Positions 44,423 to 56,078 of a DNA stretch of 64,000 nucleotides are shown here, in pieces. Position 1 is the stretch's first letter. Every line of letters starts with the position of its first letter. The stretch spans positions 2,467-66,466 of the forward strand of contig JBAYES010000003.1 in NCBI GenBank assembly GCA_041667545.1, given 5' to 3'. The notes under the pieces are model-generated. The model was not told where the DNA came from, did not search any database, and saw only the letters and a list, made by a program, of their open reading frames with translations. This DNA is from Candidatus Omnitrophota bacterium (GTDB lineage: Bacteria > Omnitrophota > Gorgyraeia > Tantalellales > Tantalellaceae). The position numbers and the translations under genes were made by a program.

Positions 44423-46090
44423 ATGGTTCCGATCATTAAATCAAAGGAAAAGAAAAGATTCGTGATCTACACCCGGTGCTCGACCGACGATCAGGCACAA
44501 GGTGATTTCACGACATTGGACGCGCAGGCGCATCACTGCAAAAACATGATGGACGCCTTCGGGTATGAGCTGGCGACGAAGTTCGGCAAAAACGGAGTTA
44601 TTAACGATGACGGCTATTCAGGTAAAGATTTAAACCGGCCCGGCATACAATCCATTCTCGAAAATATCCACAAACAAAAAAACAAAGCGTTCGACGGTAT
44701 TATATTTTTCAGGCTTGACCGGCTGACCCGTAACCCGCGTGACCTTTACAGCATGATCGACCTTTTCAAAGAAAAAGAGATCGATTTTCTGTCGGTACGC
44801 GAGAACCTTGACAGCTCAACGGCCATAGGCCGCGTGGTTATCGGTATTATCGGGTTATTATCGGCGTTTGAAAGAGAACTAACAGGTGAGCGCGTTAAGG
44901 CGTCGGCGATCGCGCGGGCTCGGCAAGGCAAATGGGTAGGCGGAAAAACCCCGTTCGGATACAAACTCGTAAAGAACGGCGCGCCGCTACCGAACGGCAG
45001 GCAACCTCATAAAATCGAAATAGACGAGCCGTTGGCGCCTTATCTAAAAACCATCTATGAAATGGCCGCCGATAACCGCACCTTAAGCGAAATAGGAAAT
45101 TTCCTTTTGAATCATAAAGTACCGACAGCAAAAAGTTCAATATGGAGGAAACAAACCGTGGCTAAAATCATCAAAAACCCCTTCTACAAGGGCGTGATCG
45201 CCTATGCCGGAGAAAAACACAAAGGCCATCATCCGGCGATCGTCGAAGAAGATCTCTGGGAGGCGGCGAACCGAGCCATAACATCAAAACTGCCGAAACA
45301 CCGGTTCACCAAAAAAGCTAAAGACTATTTCCCGCGTTTGAAAAGGCTCGCGCGATGCGGCAAATGCGGAAGCTTTTTTGTCACTTCGCTCGCGCGCGGA
45401 CAGGGCGGTAAGGCTTATTACTATTATGAATGCAGTCGGGCTCGGCAGAATCTGGGCTGTGACGCCAAACGCATATCCGCCTCGGCGTTCGATCAAGCCG
45501 TGATCGACTTTTTCAGAAGAGCGTCAACCGATCAGCAGGTTATCGTTGAATCTATGGTAGACGCGGTTAAAGACAGCACGGTAAAGGTCAACGTTCTTGA
45601 TAAGGAAATCACGTCTATTCATGAAGAATTGAACAAAAACAAAAAAGCCGCCGAAGAACTGTTGAATCTGGCTATCGAAAAAACTATATCCAAAGGGGTA
45701 ACTTACGCCAAGAAAATGAACGTTCTGGAGCAGGAAATAGCGGCTTTGGAAGCCCAGCTCTCAAAAGTCGAAGCTCAAAGGCAAGCCGCCGATATCTCAA
45801 TGAATTCAGGCCAATACCTATACGAAACCCTGCGATTCGCCATGCAATATCTGGATGAGGCCCCTTGTGACGCCCAGATCGCCCTTCTGAAAGCCCTTGT
45901 AAGGGTTATCGACATCTATGACGATCATGTCATGATGCGCCTGTATGTGGGCCAACCGCTGGATGAACTACCCTGCCGTATAGACCCCGAAAAACAAGGA
46001 ACTCTGCCCGATACTAGTGACATTAGTACCGGACAGAGTTCGCCTGGTCGTCCACTTTGGCGGAGAGGGAGGGATTCGAACCCTCGGTAG
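44423..46090 (+). CDS. large serine recombinase, paralogue of 2294-4096; last 33 nt overlap tRNA-Ser 3' end on the opposite strand
   Basis: Start set at MVPIIKSKEKKRFVIYTRCSTDDQ (RBS AAAGGA). The track ORF start at 44357 lies inside the conserved TTGACT promoter motif. About 70% identical by eye to recombinase 1. Stop codon TAG at 46088-46090. Confidence 0.8.
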   Translation: MVPIIKSKEKKRFVIYTRCSTDDQAQGDFTTLDAQAHHCKNMMDAFGYELATKFGKNGVINDDGYSGKDLNRPGIQSILENIHKQKNKAFDGIIFFRLDRLTRNPRDLYSMIDLFKEKEIDFLSVRENLDSSTAIGRVVIGIIGLLSAFERELTGERVKASAIARARQGKWVGGKTPFGYKLVKNGAPLPNGRQPHKIEIDEPLAPYLKTIYEMAADNRTLSEIGNFLLNHKVPTAKSSIWRKQTVAKIIKNPFYKGVIAYAGEKHKGHHPAIVEEDLWEAANRAITSKLPKHRFTKKAKDYFPRLKRLARCGKCGSFFVTSLARGQGGKAYYYYECSRARQNLGCDAKRISASAFDQAVIDFFRRASTDQQVIVESMVDAVKDSTVKVNVLDKEITSIHEELNKNKKAAEELLNLAIEKTISKGVTYAKKMNVLEQEIAALEAQLSKVEAQRQAADISMNSGQYLYETLRFAMQYLDEAPCDAQIALLKALVRVIDIYDDHVMMRLYVGQPLDELPCRIDPEKQGTLPDTSDISTGQSSPGRPLWRRGRDSNPR

Positions 46091-46150
46091 GGTATAACCC
46101 CTACGACGGTTTAGCAAACCGTTGCCTTCAGCCAGCTCAGCCACCTCTCC
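46058..46150 (-). tRNA. tRNA-Ser (anticodon GCU), class II with long variable arm, CCA encoded
   Basis: Reverse complement folds into a cloverleaf. Acceptor GGAGAGG/CCTCTCC. Anticodon stem ACGGT/ACCGT with loop TTGCTAA. Variable arm CGTAGGGGTTATACCCTACCG. T-arm GAGGGTTCGAATCCCTC. Discriminator G plus CCA. Confidence 0.85.
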
Positions 46151-46151
46151 G
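46111..46151. repeat. 41-bp direct repeat, left copy (tRNA-Ser 5' half through anticodon loop); partner at 56038-56078
   Basis: Identical string ttagcaaaccgttgccttcagccagctcagccacctctccg at both sites. Confidence 0.8.
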
Positions 46152-46165
46152 CATTTCTAAGTTAC

Positions 46166-47320
46166 TTAATCTGAAGGACTTACGTGTAACAACTGTTTCT
46201 CTAACAATTCGATAGAACCCTGTGGTGCTTGTTTGGTGCTTATAATCGTCTCCATCATACTCCCCAAGGTGTCTACGGACTTAGCTTTATGCCCTTGGGA
46301 TAGATGGGAATACCTCATTGTCATCTTTATGTCCTTATGCCCCATCAGTTCCTTTACAGTCATAAGGTCTACCCCGTTCATCACAAGGTGACTTGCGAAG
46401 GTATGTCGTAGGTCATGCCAACGACAATGTGTGATTTTAGCACATCTTATCGCTTTTGAGAAGATTTTATCTACATTTTTAGGGAAGACTATTTCTGTAT
46501 CGTAATGTTCTCGTAAGTTAATAAGTTCCCTCTTTACTACTGCGTTCATAGGACACATTTTAGGCTCATTGTTTTTTGTCTTATGAACATATATGATGTT
46601 GTTCCTAAGGTCTATATCAGACCACTTCAGCCGCATCATCTCACCTCGTCTCATACCAGTGTTAAGTGCCGTAAGTACTGCTGCCTTGAGGTATGGGTCA
46701 CATACTTGTAATAACCGTGCTATTTCCTCTCTCTCCAAGTAACGGACTTTAACATTGTTCTCTCTAAGATGTTTTATAGTATCAAGAGGGTTCTTTTCAG
46801 CATAACCCCATTCGATAGCTTTTTTAAAGGCGGTCTTCATTATAGTGAGATATCGGTTCACCGTGGATGGTTCAATGCCTTCCTGAAGTTTGTGCTTCTT
46901 AAAATCTTCTATATCATAAGGTTTGATTTCATCAAGGTATTTACCCCTGCCTAGTACATCCGCGGCTGATGTAAGCCTTTGTACATCGTCTTTCCAAGAG
47001 GATTTGTTGGGTTTGGAGTATGTTTCGAGGAATAGGGTTATAAAGTCTATGAGTTTAATGCGTTTTACTTTGCTTTTATCGAGGAATTTCCCTTCGGCTA
47101 TTTCTGTTTTCCGTTTGGCAAGTACTGTTTCAGCGAGTTTCTTGTTGGGTCCTATAGTTTCCCGTGTCTGTCTACCATCCACATAGTAAGATATGCACCA
47201 AATACCCTTTCTATCTTTTCTTTGGTAGACTCCTTTCATTGTTCCCTCCCTTACCCTGACGCCAAAGCCTCCAACACCATAACAGTAAACTTCCAATAGA
47301 CCTGTCTTCTTCTCTGGCAT
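46166..47320 (-). CDS. tyrosine recombinase / phage integrase
   Basis: C-terminal catalytic region contains ...RWHDLRHTFASHLVMNGVDLMTVKELMGHKDIKMTMRYSHL (R...HxxR...Y). Has an N-terminal SAM-like domain. Confidence 0.85.
   Translation of the reverse strand: MPEKKTGLLEVYCYGVGGFGVRVREGTMKGVYQRKDRKGIWCISYYVDGRQTRETIGPNKKLAETVLAKRKTEIAEGKFLDKSKVKRIKLIDFITLFLETYSKPNKSSWKDDVQRLTSAADVLGRGKYLDEIKPYDIEDFKKHKLQEGIEPSTVNRYLTIMKTAFKKAIEWGYAEKNPLDTIKHLRENNVKVRYLEREEIARLLQVCDPYLKAAVLTALNTGMRRGEMMRLKWSDIDLRNNIIYVHKTKNNEPKMCPMNAVVKRELINLREHYDTEIVFPKNVDKIFSKAIRCAKITHCRWHDLRHTFASHLVMNGVDLMTVKELMGHKDIKMTMRYSHLSQGHKAKSVDTLGSMMETIISTKQAPQGSIELLEKQLLHVSPSD
46224..46248. repeat. 25-bp direct repeat GGTGCTTgTTTGGTGCTTAtAATcg inside the int 3' coding end; partner at 55886-55910
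   Basis: Left copy is ggtgcttgtttggtgcttataatcg; right copy is ggtgcttatttggtgcttagaatac. Confidence 0.6.
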
Positions 47321-47423
47321 CTTTTTCTAATAGCTTCTTGTCCTCCGCTGAAACTCGGAAATTCATCTGCTTATCTTTACTCACAACCCCTCCTTTATAT
47401 TGTATAGCATAAGCTATACATTG

Positions 47424-55046: not shown

Positions 55047-55278
55047 ACAAAAAAGGCAACCTCCCTCACCTCGAGAAAGATTGCCTTAAATAAATAACAA
55101 GAGTCTATGCACCATCGCACCCCTTATTAGCTGTATCATCGTGACGATACGTCATTATAGCCCTTCAACGGGCATTCCTCAAGGATTTAGTGTCGTTCCA
55201 GACACAGACCCCTCCGAGACCCACCTCTAGGGGGGATTTTTATATTACCTCGGCATTAAAGATTAAATAAACGACCGT

Positions 55279-55587
55279 TTGTTTATTTGCACCCCTCAAC
55301 ACCGTCAGTATACTTGTTGTATGGCTAAGTCTCCTGATTTTATTACGAAGAATAATCTCGATTGGCTTTACAATTTTATCAATTGGTCTGTTGCCTCTGC
55401 TATTCTTCTCTTTATCTTTTGCCTAATAGACTACTTTTGGGGAAAAGACCCTATAACCGTTAAACAAGGTATCCTTATAATGCTTATAGGCACTCCAGTT
55501 TTAGGTCTTTTTCATGTCTTAAGGATAATCATTTGGAACAATATGATTAAAGCTTGGAAACGCAGTAAAGCAGACCCTTCAGATTAG
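55279..55587 (+). CDS. small membrane protein (2 TM)
   Basis: Hydrophobic segments. Confidence 0.35.
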   Translation: MFICTPQHRQYTCCMAKSPDFITKNNLDWLYNFINWSVASAILLFIFCLIDYFWGKDPITVKQGILIMLIGTPVLGLFHVLRIIIWNNMIKAWKRSKADPSD

Positions 55588-55885
55588 TAAATAAACGAAC
55601 GATTATTTATTTGATAACATCACAGTTTATGGGTAGGTGCTAACTACAGGGGAGAATTTCTTACTTTCTGGGGGGTTGCCCCCTTGCGGAGTAGGTTGTA
55701 TCGCTGGGAGTGGGGCTACGGTAGCCTACAGAAGAAATAACAGCATTTCTAATACGATACTTGGATAGTCCTGCCTTACCCTAAAAACCCAAATTCATAA
55801 AAAAATACGCGAGATATGTGAGACCGATACCAAAACTATGACGGTGGCACCCACCCCCACAGGCGACTTAGGTCGGGGCGGCTCT

Positions 55886-55910
55886 TGGTGCTTATTTGGT
55901 GCTTAGAATA
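55886..55910. repeat. 25-bp direct repeat, right copy (noncoding), 128 bp inside the right tRNA-fragment repeat
   Basis: Seen directly in the sequence. Confidence 0.6.
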
Positions 55911-56037
55911 CCGCCAGAGAGGGTTTGATAGGGGCGAATTGGTACAAATAGAGCCAAATTGGGTTATCTAATGTTTATAGGGGGTTCAGCGTATAGTGCA
56001 GTGTTTTCGGGGGTTACGGAGAATCAGCCTGTTCGTC

Positions 56038-56078
56038 TTAGCAAACCGTTGCCTTCAGCCAGCTCAGCCACCTCTCCG
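56038..56078. repeat. 41-bp direct repeat, right copy (displaced partial tRNA-Ser 5' half); candidate att site
   Basis: Identical to 46111-46151; the flanking sequence diverges immediately outside. Confidence 0.8.

Follow-up and report, generated by a model that had tools for sequence, protein, structure and literature searches.

A putative integrative element that would supply the 5′ half, and possibly the promoter, of a tRNA-Ser(GCU) gene in Candidatus Omnitrophota

Introduction

The arrangement in which an integrated element is marked by a 5′ fragment of its tRNA target was reportedly documented by Zhao and Williams in 2002. Going by the title and citations of its description, one bacterial element recombines with the 5′, not the 3′, part of its tRNA target (PMC6563490). 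In Table 1 of the Islander survey, 159 islands are marked by a 5′ tDNA fragment and 3760 by a 3′ fragment, and the attP of 2083 islands is anticodon-centred (PMC4383910). The survey drew on 2168 complete genomes in 2014, and its text gives the 5′ cases without a clade analysis (PMC4383910); given this date and the restriction to complete genomes, Omnitrophota and the other uncultured phyla that carry relatives of the integrase studied here are probably essentially absent from its set. As far as that source describes them, the Islander 5′-fragment islands resemble our locus in having an intact tDNA, an upstream co-oriented 5′ fragment and a tyrosine integrase in between.

In Thermococcales, pTN3/TKV-type integrases use an attP that holds the first 41 bp of the tRNA gene, and the rebuilt tRNA, cut off from its original promoter, is stated in these sources to be expressed from the integrase promoter (PMC5495485; PMC8371274). 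Their attP is located within the integrase ORF, which is split on integration, whereas in the 64-kb stretch analysed here (64,000 nucleotides, hereafter the window) 15 nt separate the integrase stop codon from the core and the integrase is intact. Furthermore, pTN3/TKV-type elements are archaeal, whereas the window element is bacterial and has arm-type repeats and an Xis-like gene. CalSub-E1 of Candidatus Caldiarchaeum subterraneum, likened to our case by its description, is also among the closest known systems and has an archaeal host. An earlier note on this DNA called the arrangement atypical; it is indeed rare (159 of 3919 Islander islands) but already described, in pTN3-like elements and in the reported work of Zhao and Williams (2002). 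The layout itself is known but uncommon; what is new here is a rule that holds across a clade, a promoter-like site at a fixed codon position, and integrase relics that keep this site in two genomes.

Results and Discussion

Duplication of the tRNA 5′ half

The repeat that marks the locus comprises the following features (window coordinates).

46058–46150, minus strand: intact tRNA-Ser(GCU), the sole tRNA in the window (ARAGORN; Rfam tRNA 55 bits, gathering score 29)
46111–46151, minus strand: island-borne 41-nt core, adjoining the integrase; exact repeat that ends at the last loop base
56038–56078, minus strand: displaced exact 41-nt copy, with an upstream flank homologous to that of the displaced half at a related locus, L081

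The direct repeat extends over 46111–46158 and 56038–56085 with a spacing of 9927, and 41 nt of it are exact (46111–46151 and 56038–56078). The earlier note placed the copy and its distance of 9.9 kb correctly but gave its extent as tRNA positions 1–40; since tRNA position 1 corresponds to 56077, the 41-mer spans positions −1 to 40. The anticodon occupies positions 36–38, and the 7-nt loop around it ends with position 40. Exactly two copies of a 32-nt segment from the tRNA 5′ half are present in the 64 kb, against 0 expected from shuffles, while a 30-nt segment of the 3′ end occurs once and no second copy of the 3′ half was found in this stretch. The displaced fragment includes the tRNA 5′ end and is co-oriented, 9.9 kb upstream in the orientation of the tRNA. 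An intact tRNA, a co-oriented upstream fragment with the 5′ end and a tyrosine integrase within an interval of 2–200 kb are the features by which Islander recognises such islands. The identity block has its boundary at the anticodon loop, which the symmetric stem flanks, as in the anticodon-loop sublocation of Williams (2002).

We consider it quite probable that a 9.9-kb element integrated into tRNA-Ser(GCU) via its tyrosine integrase, with an attP that holds the tRNA 5′ half, and that the tRNA is now transcribed from within the island. The element (46152–56037) would have entered by a crossover in the anticodon loop, presumably within 46111–46117. Its attP would carry the first 40 bases of the tRNA instead of the usual 3′ part, so that the working gene would consist of an island 5′ half and a host 3′ half. 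The host 5′ half, plus whatever drove it, would have been displaced 9.9 kb upstream.

The island, its integrase and its ends

Features within the island are as follows.

46152–56037, minus strand: putative integrated island, 9.9 kb (Pfam, PHROGs, GC)
46166–47239, minus strand: tyrosine integrase (357 aa in the gene calls of the source contig; longest ORF to 47320; exact product on record)
47424–47630, minus strand: Xis-like HTH_17 protein, 68 aa (PF12728, 7e-16; PHROG excisionase families)
46223–46246, minus strand: arm-type repeat pair on the integrase side, 2 × AAGCACCA, 73–96 nt from the tRNA 5′ end, a 92% repeat with 55886–55909
55886–55909, minus strand: arm-type repeat pair on the far side, 2 × AAGCACCA, 129–152 nt inside the island from the displaced half

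The integrase shares the strand of the tRNA and stops 15 nt before its 5′ end, bearing out the earlier statement that a tyrosine integrase island abuts this end. It contains the domains Phage_integrase (PF00589, 5e-33), Int_N and Phage_int_SAM_5, and has the catalytic R...HxxR...Y set: in a 42-sequence alignment, R224 is invariant and H302, R305 and Y337 are at least 90% conserved. The ORF is intact and not split, unlike that of the ‘suicidal’ pTN3/SSV type, with its attP inside the ORF. The Xis-like protein is 68% identical to the product of an HTH_17 gene upstream of the L081 integrase; this fold is also found in regulators and small terminases. The remaining cargo includes an AAA_25 primase/helicase-like replication protein, a MerR-like protein, DUF5659, DUF4136 and PsbP_2 proteins and small ORFs (Pfam, PHROGs). 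GC content is 0.37–0.43 between the repeats and 0.46–0.50 in the flanks, with the shift at both repeat copies. The sequence AAGCACCA occurs five times in the window against 1.3 expected, and four of the five copies form the two arm pairs; at L081, GGACACCAAA is found on both arms. These repeats lie on both sides of the core and are distinct from it, which is consistent with the arm-type sites of a heterobivalent lambda-type tyrosine integrase system.

Genome, metagenome and viral collections were scanned by pattern for an empty attB, an attP circle or an island-free relative, with 0 matches, so the argument for integration is one of anatomy and analogy. A protein encoded in the flank was without homologues and absent from the records searched. 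The lack of any attP or attB form in these collections, together with the decayed elements that the site gathers (such as the integrase relic described below), would fit a fixed remnant, that is, an island that integrated as described and then lost excision, leaving a fossil and not a working attL/attR pair. However, the two copies of the 41-nt core have not diverged, the integrase has an unbroken ORF and conserved catalytic residues, and the Xis-like gene and both arm-repeat pairs are also intact. In addition, the Logan data for another sample, SRR6485349, contain the identical integrase, encoded on a contig whose break falls within the repeat. We regard a fossil as unlikely, and the element may still be mobile.

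Relatives of the integrase

The family survey comprised 80 loci from species-representative genomes. Of the 39 relatives closest to this integrase, 32 have a co-oriented tRNA that begins 0–125 nt beyond the integrase gene, and a convergent arrangement is absent from the 39; it is found at 18 (classical) loci among the more distant relatives. The classical anticodon-loop integrases (‘symmetric sublocation’ of Williams 2002; L053, L061, L063 and L072) resemble the window in their sequence (34–40% identity), their loop-bounded block and an integrase that adjoins the tRNA. In contrast, their integrase runs convergently towards the tRNA 3′ end, the tRNA retains its host promoter, position 32 to the 3′ end is duplicated, and the fixed codon position discussed below has no promoter-like site. 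L082, with an integrase 90% identical to that of the window, has the same 15-nt gap between integrase and tRNA-Ser. The earlier note had proposed looking for the island at tRNA-Ser 5′ halves in other genomes, and L081 has the same anatomy: a 58% identical integrase, followed by tRNA-Ser(GCU), with a displaced 5′ half 6.1 kb upstream (one mismatch in 40). These two independent tRNA-Ser islands differ in cargo and flanking genes, the one indirect hint that such islands are sporadically present. Displaced 5′ fragments were also found at L009, L017, L027 and L002 and end at or just past the anticodon loop; in five loci besides the window, the identity block ends at, or within 5 nt of, the last loop base. 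Members of the integrase clade inherit the reversed layout; it is not a one-off.

This recurrence bears on whether the 41-nt copy could be what an unrelated rearrangement left behind, or a tRNA pseudogene, with the integrase beside the tRNA by chance or part of an element with other boundaries. The debris upstream of the copy (the integrase relic and a 9-nt tRNA relic) does indicate a history of rearrangement, and neither an empty site nor an excised form was recovered. However, the copy is exact and co-oriented and ends at the anticodon loop, the arm-type repeats are symmetric around it, GC shifts at both repeat copies, and the geometry recurs with different tRNAs at L081, L009, L017, L027 and L002, making an unrelated origin very improbable. 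The claim that the island brings the tRNA 5′ half agrees with the end of the repeat at the anticodon loop, with the integrase, Xis-like gene and arm-type repeats at the places predicted for attL and attR, and with the order of genes at L081 and the other close loci.

Tools that find islands, and annotators of prophages, are mostly geared to a 3′ tRNA fragment lying downstream of the gene. Since this clade always has the opposite, its islands will be missed in poorly studied phyla or given wrong boundaries. At a symmetric target, one and the same integrase family has switched orientation, which also constitutes a natural experiment on integrase directionality, a question that bears on retargeting integrases as genome-engineering tools.

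Candidate promoters of the chimeric tRNA gene

Four features bear on transcription; the promoter-like sites among them are candidates found by consensus matching, under sigma-70-type rules that may not be those of Omnitrophota.

46434–46462, minus strand: promoter-like site within the coding sequence of the integrase, TTCTCA-17 nt-TAAAAT with a TG upstream (consensus scan), directed towards the tRNA, which begins about 284 nt further downstream
47399–47427, minus strand: promoter-like site upstream of the integrase gene, TTGACA-17-TACAAT (consensus scan, 11/12)
56237–56298, minus strand: relic of an integrase catalytic domain, with an intact promoter-like site TTCTCA-17-TGCTAAAAT at 56264–56292 (promoter scan)
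56188–56196, minus strand: 9-nt relic of a tRNA 5′ end (GGAGAGGTG), downstream of the integrase relic; short and weak evidence by itself

Because the tRNA starts 15 nt beyond the integrase gene on their common strand, and a terminator is absent from this gap, transcription of the tRNA would have to start inside the island. The likeliest promoter would be the sigma-70-type site within the integrase coding sequence, and RNase P would trim the 5′ leader. Read-through from the integrase's own promoter could be a second source: the 47399–47427 site is possibly this promoter and might also serve the tRNA, as no terminator-like site was found on the same strand between them.

A strong sigma-70-like site was found at one fixed codon position of the integrase ORF in 20 of 44 co-oriented relatives and in none of 16 convergent (classical) ones (Fisher p 5e-4, kinship ignored), although the promoter-bearing loci form approximately one clade in a rough NJ tree, so that the contrast partly reflects shared ancestry, and the −10 element shares bases with a conserved Ile codon, so that protein constraint gives part of the signal. 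The same ORFs contain just 12 other promoter matches in 48.8 kb. This conserved site lends indirect support to the island as the source of the tRNA's promoter, as the earlier note had presumed.

The same TTCTCA-17-TGnTAAAAT site occurs inside the integrase gene and upstream of the displaced half, where it lies in the relic. The relic matches the window integrase at 78% over 36 nt and the L081 integrase at 71% over 63 nt (E 2e-8), and its peptide QKYFSNTLKYAKIQSCRFY..RHS matches the L081 integrase by tblastn (E 2e-6). It is 93% identical over 86 nt (E 1e-28) to a relic at L081, where the counterpart of the 9-nt tRNA relic is CGGAGAGGTG at 2710–2719. Its reading frame is broken, yet both hexamers, their spacing and the TG are kept. 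We propose that the relic promoter drove the tRNA before the island arrived.

Alternatively, the tRNA might be transcribed by read-through from the integrase promoter alone, as proposed for pTN3-like elements, and the site in the ORF would be a side effect of the AT-rich codons that encode a conserved peptide. The near-consensus TTGACA-17-TACAAT upstream and the lack of a terminator before the tRNA favour this explanation, as do the overlap of the −10 element with the Ile codon (ATA is a common Ile codon in these genes) and the absence of a strong internal site from more than half of the co-oriented integrases (24 of 44 at the fixed codon position). However, the classical relatives share the A-x-I..HDLRH peptide and have the site in 0 of 16 cases, and the −35 hexamer, 17-nt spacing and TG are kept together. 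Relics upstream of displaced halves hold the promoter-like site after decay of the ORF in two genomes. Moreover, the promoters of integrase genes are usually weakly active while the element is integrated, which would suit a constitutively needed tRNA poorly. Transcription by read-through alone appears unlikely, and the site inside the ORF is the likeliest candidate promoter.

The relics in two genomes point to an integrase fragment that persists as a tRNA promoter. We tentatively suggest, as a reading that may well prove wrong, that an integrase clade found mostly in Omnitrophota and other uncultured phyla fixed the reversed orientation, that the promoter in its ORF takes over the entered tRNA, and that after decay a fragment stays as the host's tRNA promoter, with the terminator at this locus also coming from a prophage. 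Should the embedded promoter prove real, it would exemplify how a host tRNA can come to depend on the DNA of a mobile element, and how an integrase fragment of a dead element can persist as a host promoter.

The prophage at the CCA end

Two features adjoin the tRNA 3′ end.

44423–46090 (alternative start 44357), plus strand: large serine recombinase of a lambda-like prophage (Resolvase, Recombinase and Zn_ribbon_recom domains)
45999–46041, minus strand: intrinsic-terminator-like hairpin with an 18-bp stem and a T run, directly after the tRNA and antisense within the serine recombinase ORF

Ser rec 1 and Ser rec 2 both have the three domains and the length (500–700 aa) of large serine recombinases. 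The last 11 codons of the latter are antisense to the tRNA 3′ end, an overlap of 33 nt that confirms the one reported earlier. Homology with a paralogue stops at approximately 46058–46063 (TGGCGG), the prophage–host junction, and viral homologues with about 70% identity have the same junction at the CCA ends of other tRNAs. Judging from these boundaries, the tRNA-Ser is probably a chimera with positions 1–40 from the island and the rest from the host, its CCA end being shared with the P arm of the prophage. If the clade promoter and the prophage terminator both act as suggested, about 50 bp of the tRNA gene, and none of its expression signals, would be of host origin. A counterpart of the hairpin and T run is legible by eye in the homologue sequences.

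The tRNA-Ser gene and its displaced 5′ half

The tyrosine-integrase island occupies the 9.9 kb between an intact tRNA-Ser(GCU) gene and a copy of the 5′ half of that gene. The features that define this arrangement were as follows (window positions):

46058–46150 (−): tRNA-Ser(GCT), the sole tRNA found in the window by ARAGORN
46111–46158 and 56038–56085: direct repeat found by a repeat search of the window, initial 41 nt identical
56038–56078 (−): displaced half, at the far end of the island
46166 (−): stop of the island integrase ORF
44423–46090 (+): serine recombinase 2 (Ser rec 2)
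56426–63958, extending beyond the window end (−): giant ORF, 2510 aa in the window and 2800 aa as called in the source contig

The earlier note had recognised the intact gene and its 41-bp copy, and both were confirmed by ARAGORN, by the Rfam tRNA model (55 bits) and by the exact 41-nt repeat. Its coordinates were right, but the repeat, said to span tRNA positions 1–40, covers positions −1 to 40 and therefore includes one base preceding the gene (tRNA strand: C followed by GGAGAGGTGGCTGAGCTGGCTGAAGGCAACGGTTTGCTAA); position 40 is where the anticodon loop ends. Within the 64 kb, a 32-nt segment from the 5′ half had exactly two copies (none expected by chance), and a 30-nt segment taken from the 3′ end had one. 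The two neighbours described for the tRNA were also found: the integrase, encoded on the tRNA strand, stops 15 nt short of the tRNA 5′ end, and the Ser rec 2 ORF, on the opposite strand, ends 33 nt into the tRNA 3′ end. The reading of an island that duplicates a tRNA 5′ half is supported as well. An Rfam match to the Plastid-psbI-rps4 3′ UTR family opposite the tRNA (46061–46114, +) scored 60.9 bits, below the gathering score of 68, and overlapped the tRNA; rather than a real element, the match most probably reflects a complement of tRNA-Ser among the seed sequences of the family.

Integration that displaces the front part of its tRNA target has been documented before, and the island is a further case of this known, uncommon kind. 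Such an integration is reportedly named in the title of a 2002 paper by Zhao and Williams. Reviews describe 5′ integration as "considerably less frequent" than 3′ integration (PMC6563490), and Table 1 of the Islander paper lists 159 islands with a 5′ fragment versus 3760 with a 3′ fragment, ca. 4% (PMC4383910). By the Islander criteria, the present element is a 5′-fragment island and belongs also to the anticodon-loop class. The layout is non-classical, as first noted, but "atypical" is too strong for a minority arrangement that has been catalogued. The archaeal element pTN3 is described as sharing 41 bp of a tRNA-Leu 5′ half, the rebuilt gene being "separated from its original promoter" (PMC5495485). 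In contrast to pTN3/SSV-type elements, the integrase gene is not split by integration here; the island is therefore not of that type.

No empty site or attP was recovered when the exact tRNA 3′ part was searched in genome contigs (0 matches). Searches with the full tRNA sequence and the leader/tRNA junction in metagenome contigs and with the tRNA 5′ half in viral contigs likewise gave 0 matches. The giant flanking ORF had no Pfam match, its product as read in the window was absent from records, and its C-terminal 700 aa had no detectable homologues; the flank therefore offered no route to island-free relatives.

Content and ends of the island

The GC content was 0.37–0.43 across the 9.9 kb between the repeats versus 0.46–0.50 outside. 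The recognisable genes and end sequences were as follows:

Integrase, 357 aa: Phage_integrase (5e-33), Int_N and SAM-like domains
Directly upstream of the integrase: HTH_17/excisionase-like protein, 68 aa
Other island genes: AAA_25 primase/helicase-like, MerR-like, DUF5659, DUF4136, PsbP_2, and small ORFs without matches
46223–46246 (−, tRNA strand): pair of AAGCACCA octamers, 73–96 nt upstream of the intact tRNA
55886–55909 (−, tRNA strand): second pair of AAGCACCA octamers, 129–152 nt into the island from the displaced half

The octamer had five copies in the window versus 1.3 expected, and four of them formed these two tandem pairs. The pairs have the arrangement of arm-type sites on both arms of a lambda-like attP. 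The only exact database matches to the integrase were the source contig (ENA ERZ27247361 k141_1054517, 79,433 nt, in which the window spans 14606–78605) and one 3.4-kb contig that breaks inside the repeat. DUF5659 was found both in the island (50085–50348, −) and near serine recombinase 1 (1151–1498, −), and this domain recurs among small mobile elements of the same genome.

Replicate islands and orientation of the integrase clade

Homologues of the integrase number in the thousands, those with names being chiefly from Candidatus Omnitrophota MAGs. The earlier note had suggested looking for the island at tRNA-Ser 5′ halves in other genomes, and homologous integrases beside tRNA-Ser were found at two loci. 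One is a 17-kb JGI contig (L081) with integrase P0003 (7866–8993), 58% identical to that of the window, and a co-oriented tRNA-Ser(GCT) after it at 9016–9108; the initial 40 bases of this tRNA recur with a single mismatch at 2878–2917, and the 6.1-kb interval contains a small-terminase-like gene and an HTH_17 gene adjoining the integrase. The other (L082) has a 90%-identical integrase, again 15 nt upstream of tRNA-Ser(GCT). A third, 64%-identical homologue (L083) adjoins tRNA-Arg(ACG) and not tRNA-Ser. The tRNA-Ser genes of the window, L081 and L082 have identical 5′ halves and differing variable arms, as would be expected of a 5′ half that moves along with the element and a 3′ half that is the host's own. 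The window island and that of L081 are unrelated in cargo and in flanking genes; matches were confined to the integrase, the xis gene and ca. 200 nt upstream of the displaced half.

A profile built on 42 integrases was used to collect 80 loci from species-representative genomes. The tRNAs near each integrase were identified with ARAGORN and scored for position and strand as co-oriented (reversed; tRNA downstream on the same strand) or convergent (classical; integrase facing the tRNA 3′ end).

Position of tRNA genes relative to the integrase in 80 loci
L001–L039 (39 closest, at least 40% identity): co-oriented 0–125 nt after the integrase, 32; convergent, 0; none within 450 nt, 7 (2 at a contig end)
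L040–L080 (41 loci, 34–48% identity): co-oriented 0–125 nt after the integrase, 10; convergent, 18; none within 450 nt, 13

The targets at co-oriented loci include tRNAs for Pro, Met, Phe, Leu, Arg, Lys, Thr, Tyr, Gln and Ser. Among loci with enough upstream sequence, displaced 5′ fragments were found in L017 (41 nt exact, positions 1–41), L009, L027, L002, L081 and the window, all ending at the anticodon loop or at most ca. 5 nt past it. At four convergent loci (L053, L061, L063 and L072), the duplication instead runs from position 32–33 through the 3′ end. These mirror-image duplications imply that both kinds use the anticodon stem-loop and differ in the side carried by the element. In a neighbour-joining tree, which is rough, approximate and without resampling support, the window, L081–L083 and most of L001–L030 formed one large clade with zero classical members. 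The classical loci were basal except for L042 and L047, nested among reversed loci; strict monophyly of the reversed clade was accordingly rejected, and the orientation flip probably occurred more than once, as judged from this tree. In the literature searched, no description was found of a large integrase clade from little-studied phyla in which the reversed layout prevails as a rule.

Some loci carried additional tRNA fragments. Copies of the tRNA 3′ end, 17–33 nt long and spanning the T arm to the acceptor end, sit 100–200 nt downstream of the intact tRNA in L001 (9227–9259), L004 (1566–1582), L007 (1424–1448) and L008 (2902–2921); each could be a scar left by other elements that targeted this end of the gene, or could mark a very small insertion. 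Upstream of the L017 island, two displaced tRNA-Thr 5′-end copies (6244–6260, 17 nt; 6337–6377, 41 nt) lie 93 nt apart; as in the window, the site may have been used repeatedly.

A promoter-like site within the integrase

No terminator-like site was found on the tRNA strand in the 15-nt gap between the integrase and the tRNA, so that transcription of the tRNA would have to start inside the island. A consensus scan gave two promoter-like sites:

47427–47399 (−): TTGACA-17-TACAAT, upstream of the integrase
46462–46434 (−): TTCTCA-17-TAAAAT with an upstream TG, inside the integrase

The internal site falls in the codons for FSKAIRCAKI, just ahead of the HDLRH catalytic motif. The equivalent segment was scanned in all loci with the HxLRH codon as the anchor, a strong site being one of at least 10.5 on a 0–14.5 scale. 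A strong site with its −10 hexamer ending exactly 13 or 16 nt ahead of the HxLRH codon was present in 20 of the 44 co-oriented integrases versus none of the 16 convergent ones (Fisher p = 5e-4, which overstates independence because the promoter-bearing loci are related), and only 12 equally strong hits occurred elsewhere in 48.8 kb of co-oriented ORFs. Core-clade DNA reads TTC TTT ACA ... GGT ATA ATT, i.e., TTTACA, 17 nt and T-G-G-TATAAT, and encodes F-F-T ... G-I-I. A caveat here is that Ile is commonly encoded by ATA in these integrase genes. The classical relatives keep the A-x-I ... HDLRH peptide, but their codons differ. The literature searched yielded no description of a promoter-like site conserved in position within the integrase ORFs of this clade.

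An integrase relic upstream of the displaced half

A further promoter-like site, TTCTCA-17-TGCTAAAAT (56292–56264, −), lies ca. 185 nt upstream of the displaced 5′ half. The flanking 36–63 nt are 78% identical to the window integrase gene and 71% identical over 63 nt to that of L081 (E = 2e-8), and the translation QKYFSNTLKYAKIQSCRFY--RHS corresponds to RKDFSNALKYAKISHCRFHDLRHT in the L081 integrase (E = 2e-6). Because the surrounding sequence matches an integrase gene, the site is no coincidence of consensus. At the corresponding place, L081 positions 2617–2702 are 93% identical over 86 nt to its own integrase gene (E = 1e-28) and are followed by the integrase/tRNA junction sequence TAGTGCGGAGAGGTG. 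This relic also ruled out chance as the origin of a repeat in the window (46433–46468/56263–56298). The upstream regions of the window and L081 are homologous from the relic through to the displaced half; thus, both hosts appear to have borne remnants of an earlier element of the same family before the present islands arrived. What is left comprises the integrase segment with the promoter-like site, a short stub (9 nt) from the start of the tRNA and a ca. 110-nt leader. No description of site-retaining integrase relics upstream of displaced halves was found in the literature searched.

In the relic, both hexamers, the spacing and the TG are intact and the reading frame is broken. From this pattern, we infer that the relic was kept for its promoter function, although it may alternatively be merely young. 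If it was retained as a promoter, an earlier island would have taken over transcription of the tRNA and then decayed, its integrase fragment remaining as the tRNA promoter until the present island displaced it.

The leader (window 56079–56187, −; L081 2720–2876) lies between the 9-nt stub and the displaced half and is 82–87% conserved between the two loci, with several CTTCGC/GCGAAG motifs and a GCCCTAC...GTAGGGC hairpin. It had no match in an Rfam scan of 43000–58000 and may derive from one more decayed element or serve a function as a leader. Between the giant ORF end and the relic, two 26-nt direct repeats of no evident function (56314–56339/56359–56384) are 88% identical and 45 nt apart.

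The prophage at the tRNA 3′ end and two serine recombinases

The other side of the tRNA is occupied by a lambda-like prophage with restriction-modification and other defence genes as cargo:

1 to ca. 46057: prophage, with gpA terminase, lambda-type portal and J-like tail protein
2294–4096 (+): serine recombinase 1 (Ser rec 1)
4180–15911 (−): dense defence-type block between Ser rec 1 and the phage structural genes, containing an HNH endonuclease, two HATPase_c_3 proteins, two C-5 cytosine methylases, a Z1-domain protein, an NgoFVII-type restriction enzyme and, according to the Pfam marks of the source contig, a Vsr-like gene
46041–45999 (−): 18-bp hairpin and T run in the phage arm, directly after the CCA, antisense in the Ser rec 2 C-terminal coding region

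Ser rec 2 and Ser rec 1 are 63% identical, and their DNA is alignable as far as TGGCGG and divergent beyond; in Ser rec 2, this hexamer (46058–46063) is the complement of the last six tRNA bases, CCGCCA. Relatives of Ser rec 2 were found on nine viral contigs, eight at 70–74% identity and one (L093) at 57%. In five of the eight, a conserved ...GGGTTCGCCTGAGCGTCAACAATGGCG(G) is joined to the complement of a tRNA 3′ end, namely Ser(GGA) in L086, L089 and L090, Arg(TCT) in L087 and Glu(TTC) in L092; the L085 and L091 contigs stop inside such a join. The conserved arm ...CAACAATGGCG meets the tRNA CCA end in these ca. 70%-identical homologues (the L085–L092 group). The same join in homologues indicates that the last codons of Ser rec 2 (RRGRDSNPR*) are the host tRNA read backwards. 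Judging from these junctions, the recombinases seem to form a family of serine integrases with the very 3′ end of tRNA genes as their target. The Islander paper states that only tyrosine integrases were known to target tDNAs (PMC4383910), and our literature search, incomplete in coverage, found no report of a serine integrase targeting tRNA genes.

A hairpin similar to that after the CCA was readable by eye in the viral homologues, and in L081, where the prophage is absent, a separate terminator-like hairpin with a T run follows the tRNA. The prophage apparently supplies the tRNA with a substitute terminator.

In Ser rec 1, the same arm motif ends in TGGCGG at 3912–3917 and is followed by 60 codons of non-tRNA sequence. 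This junction may represent an attP that is still intact, integration into another target or the seam between two elements in tandem; alignment of the following sequence with that after the non-tRNA viral homologue L088, as predicted for an attP P′ arm, was unconvincing. To the left of Ser rec 1, the source contig (L097) contains a primase-polymerase-like gene, HTH_17, RadC and a type I restriction subunit.
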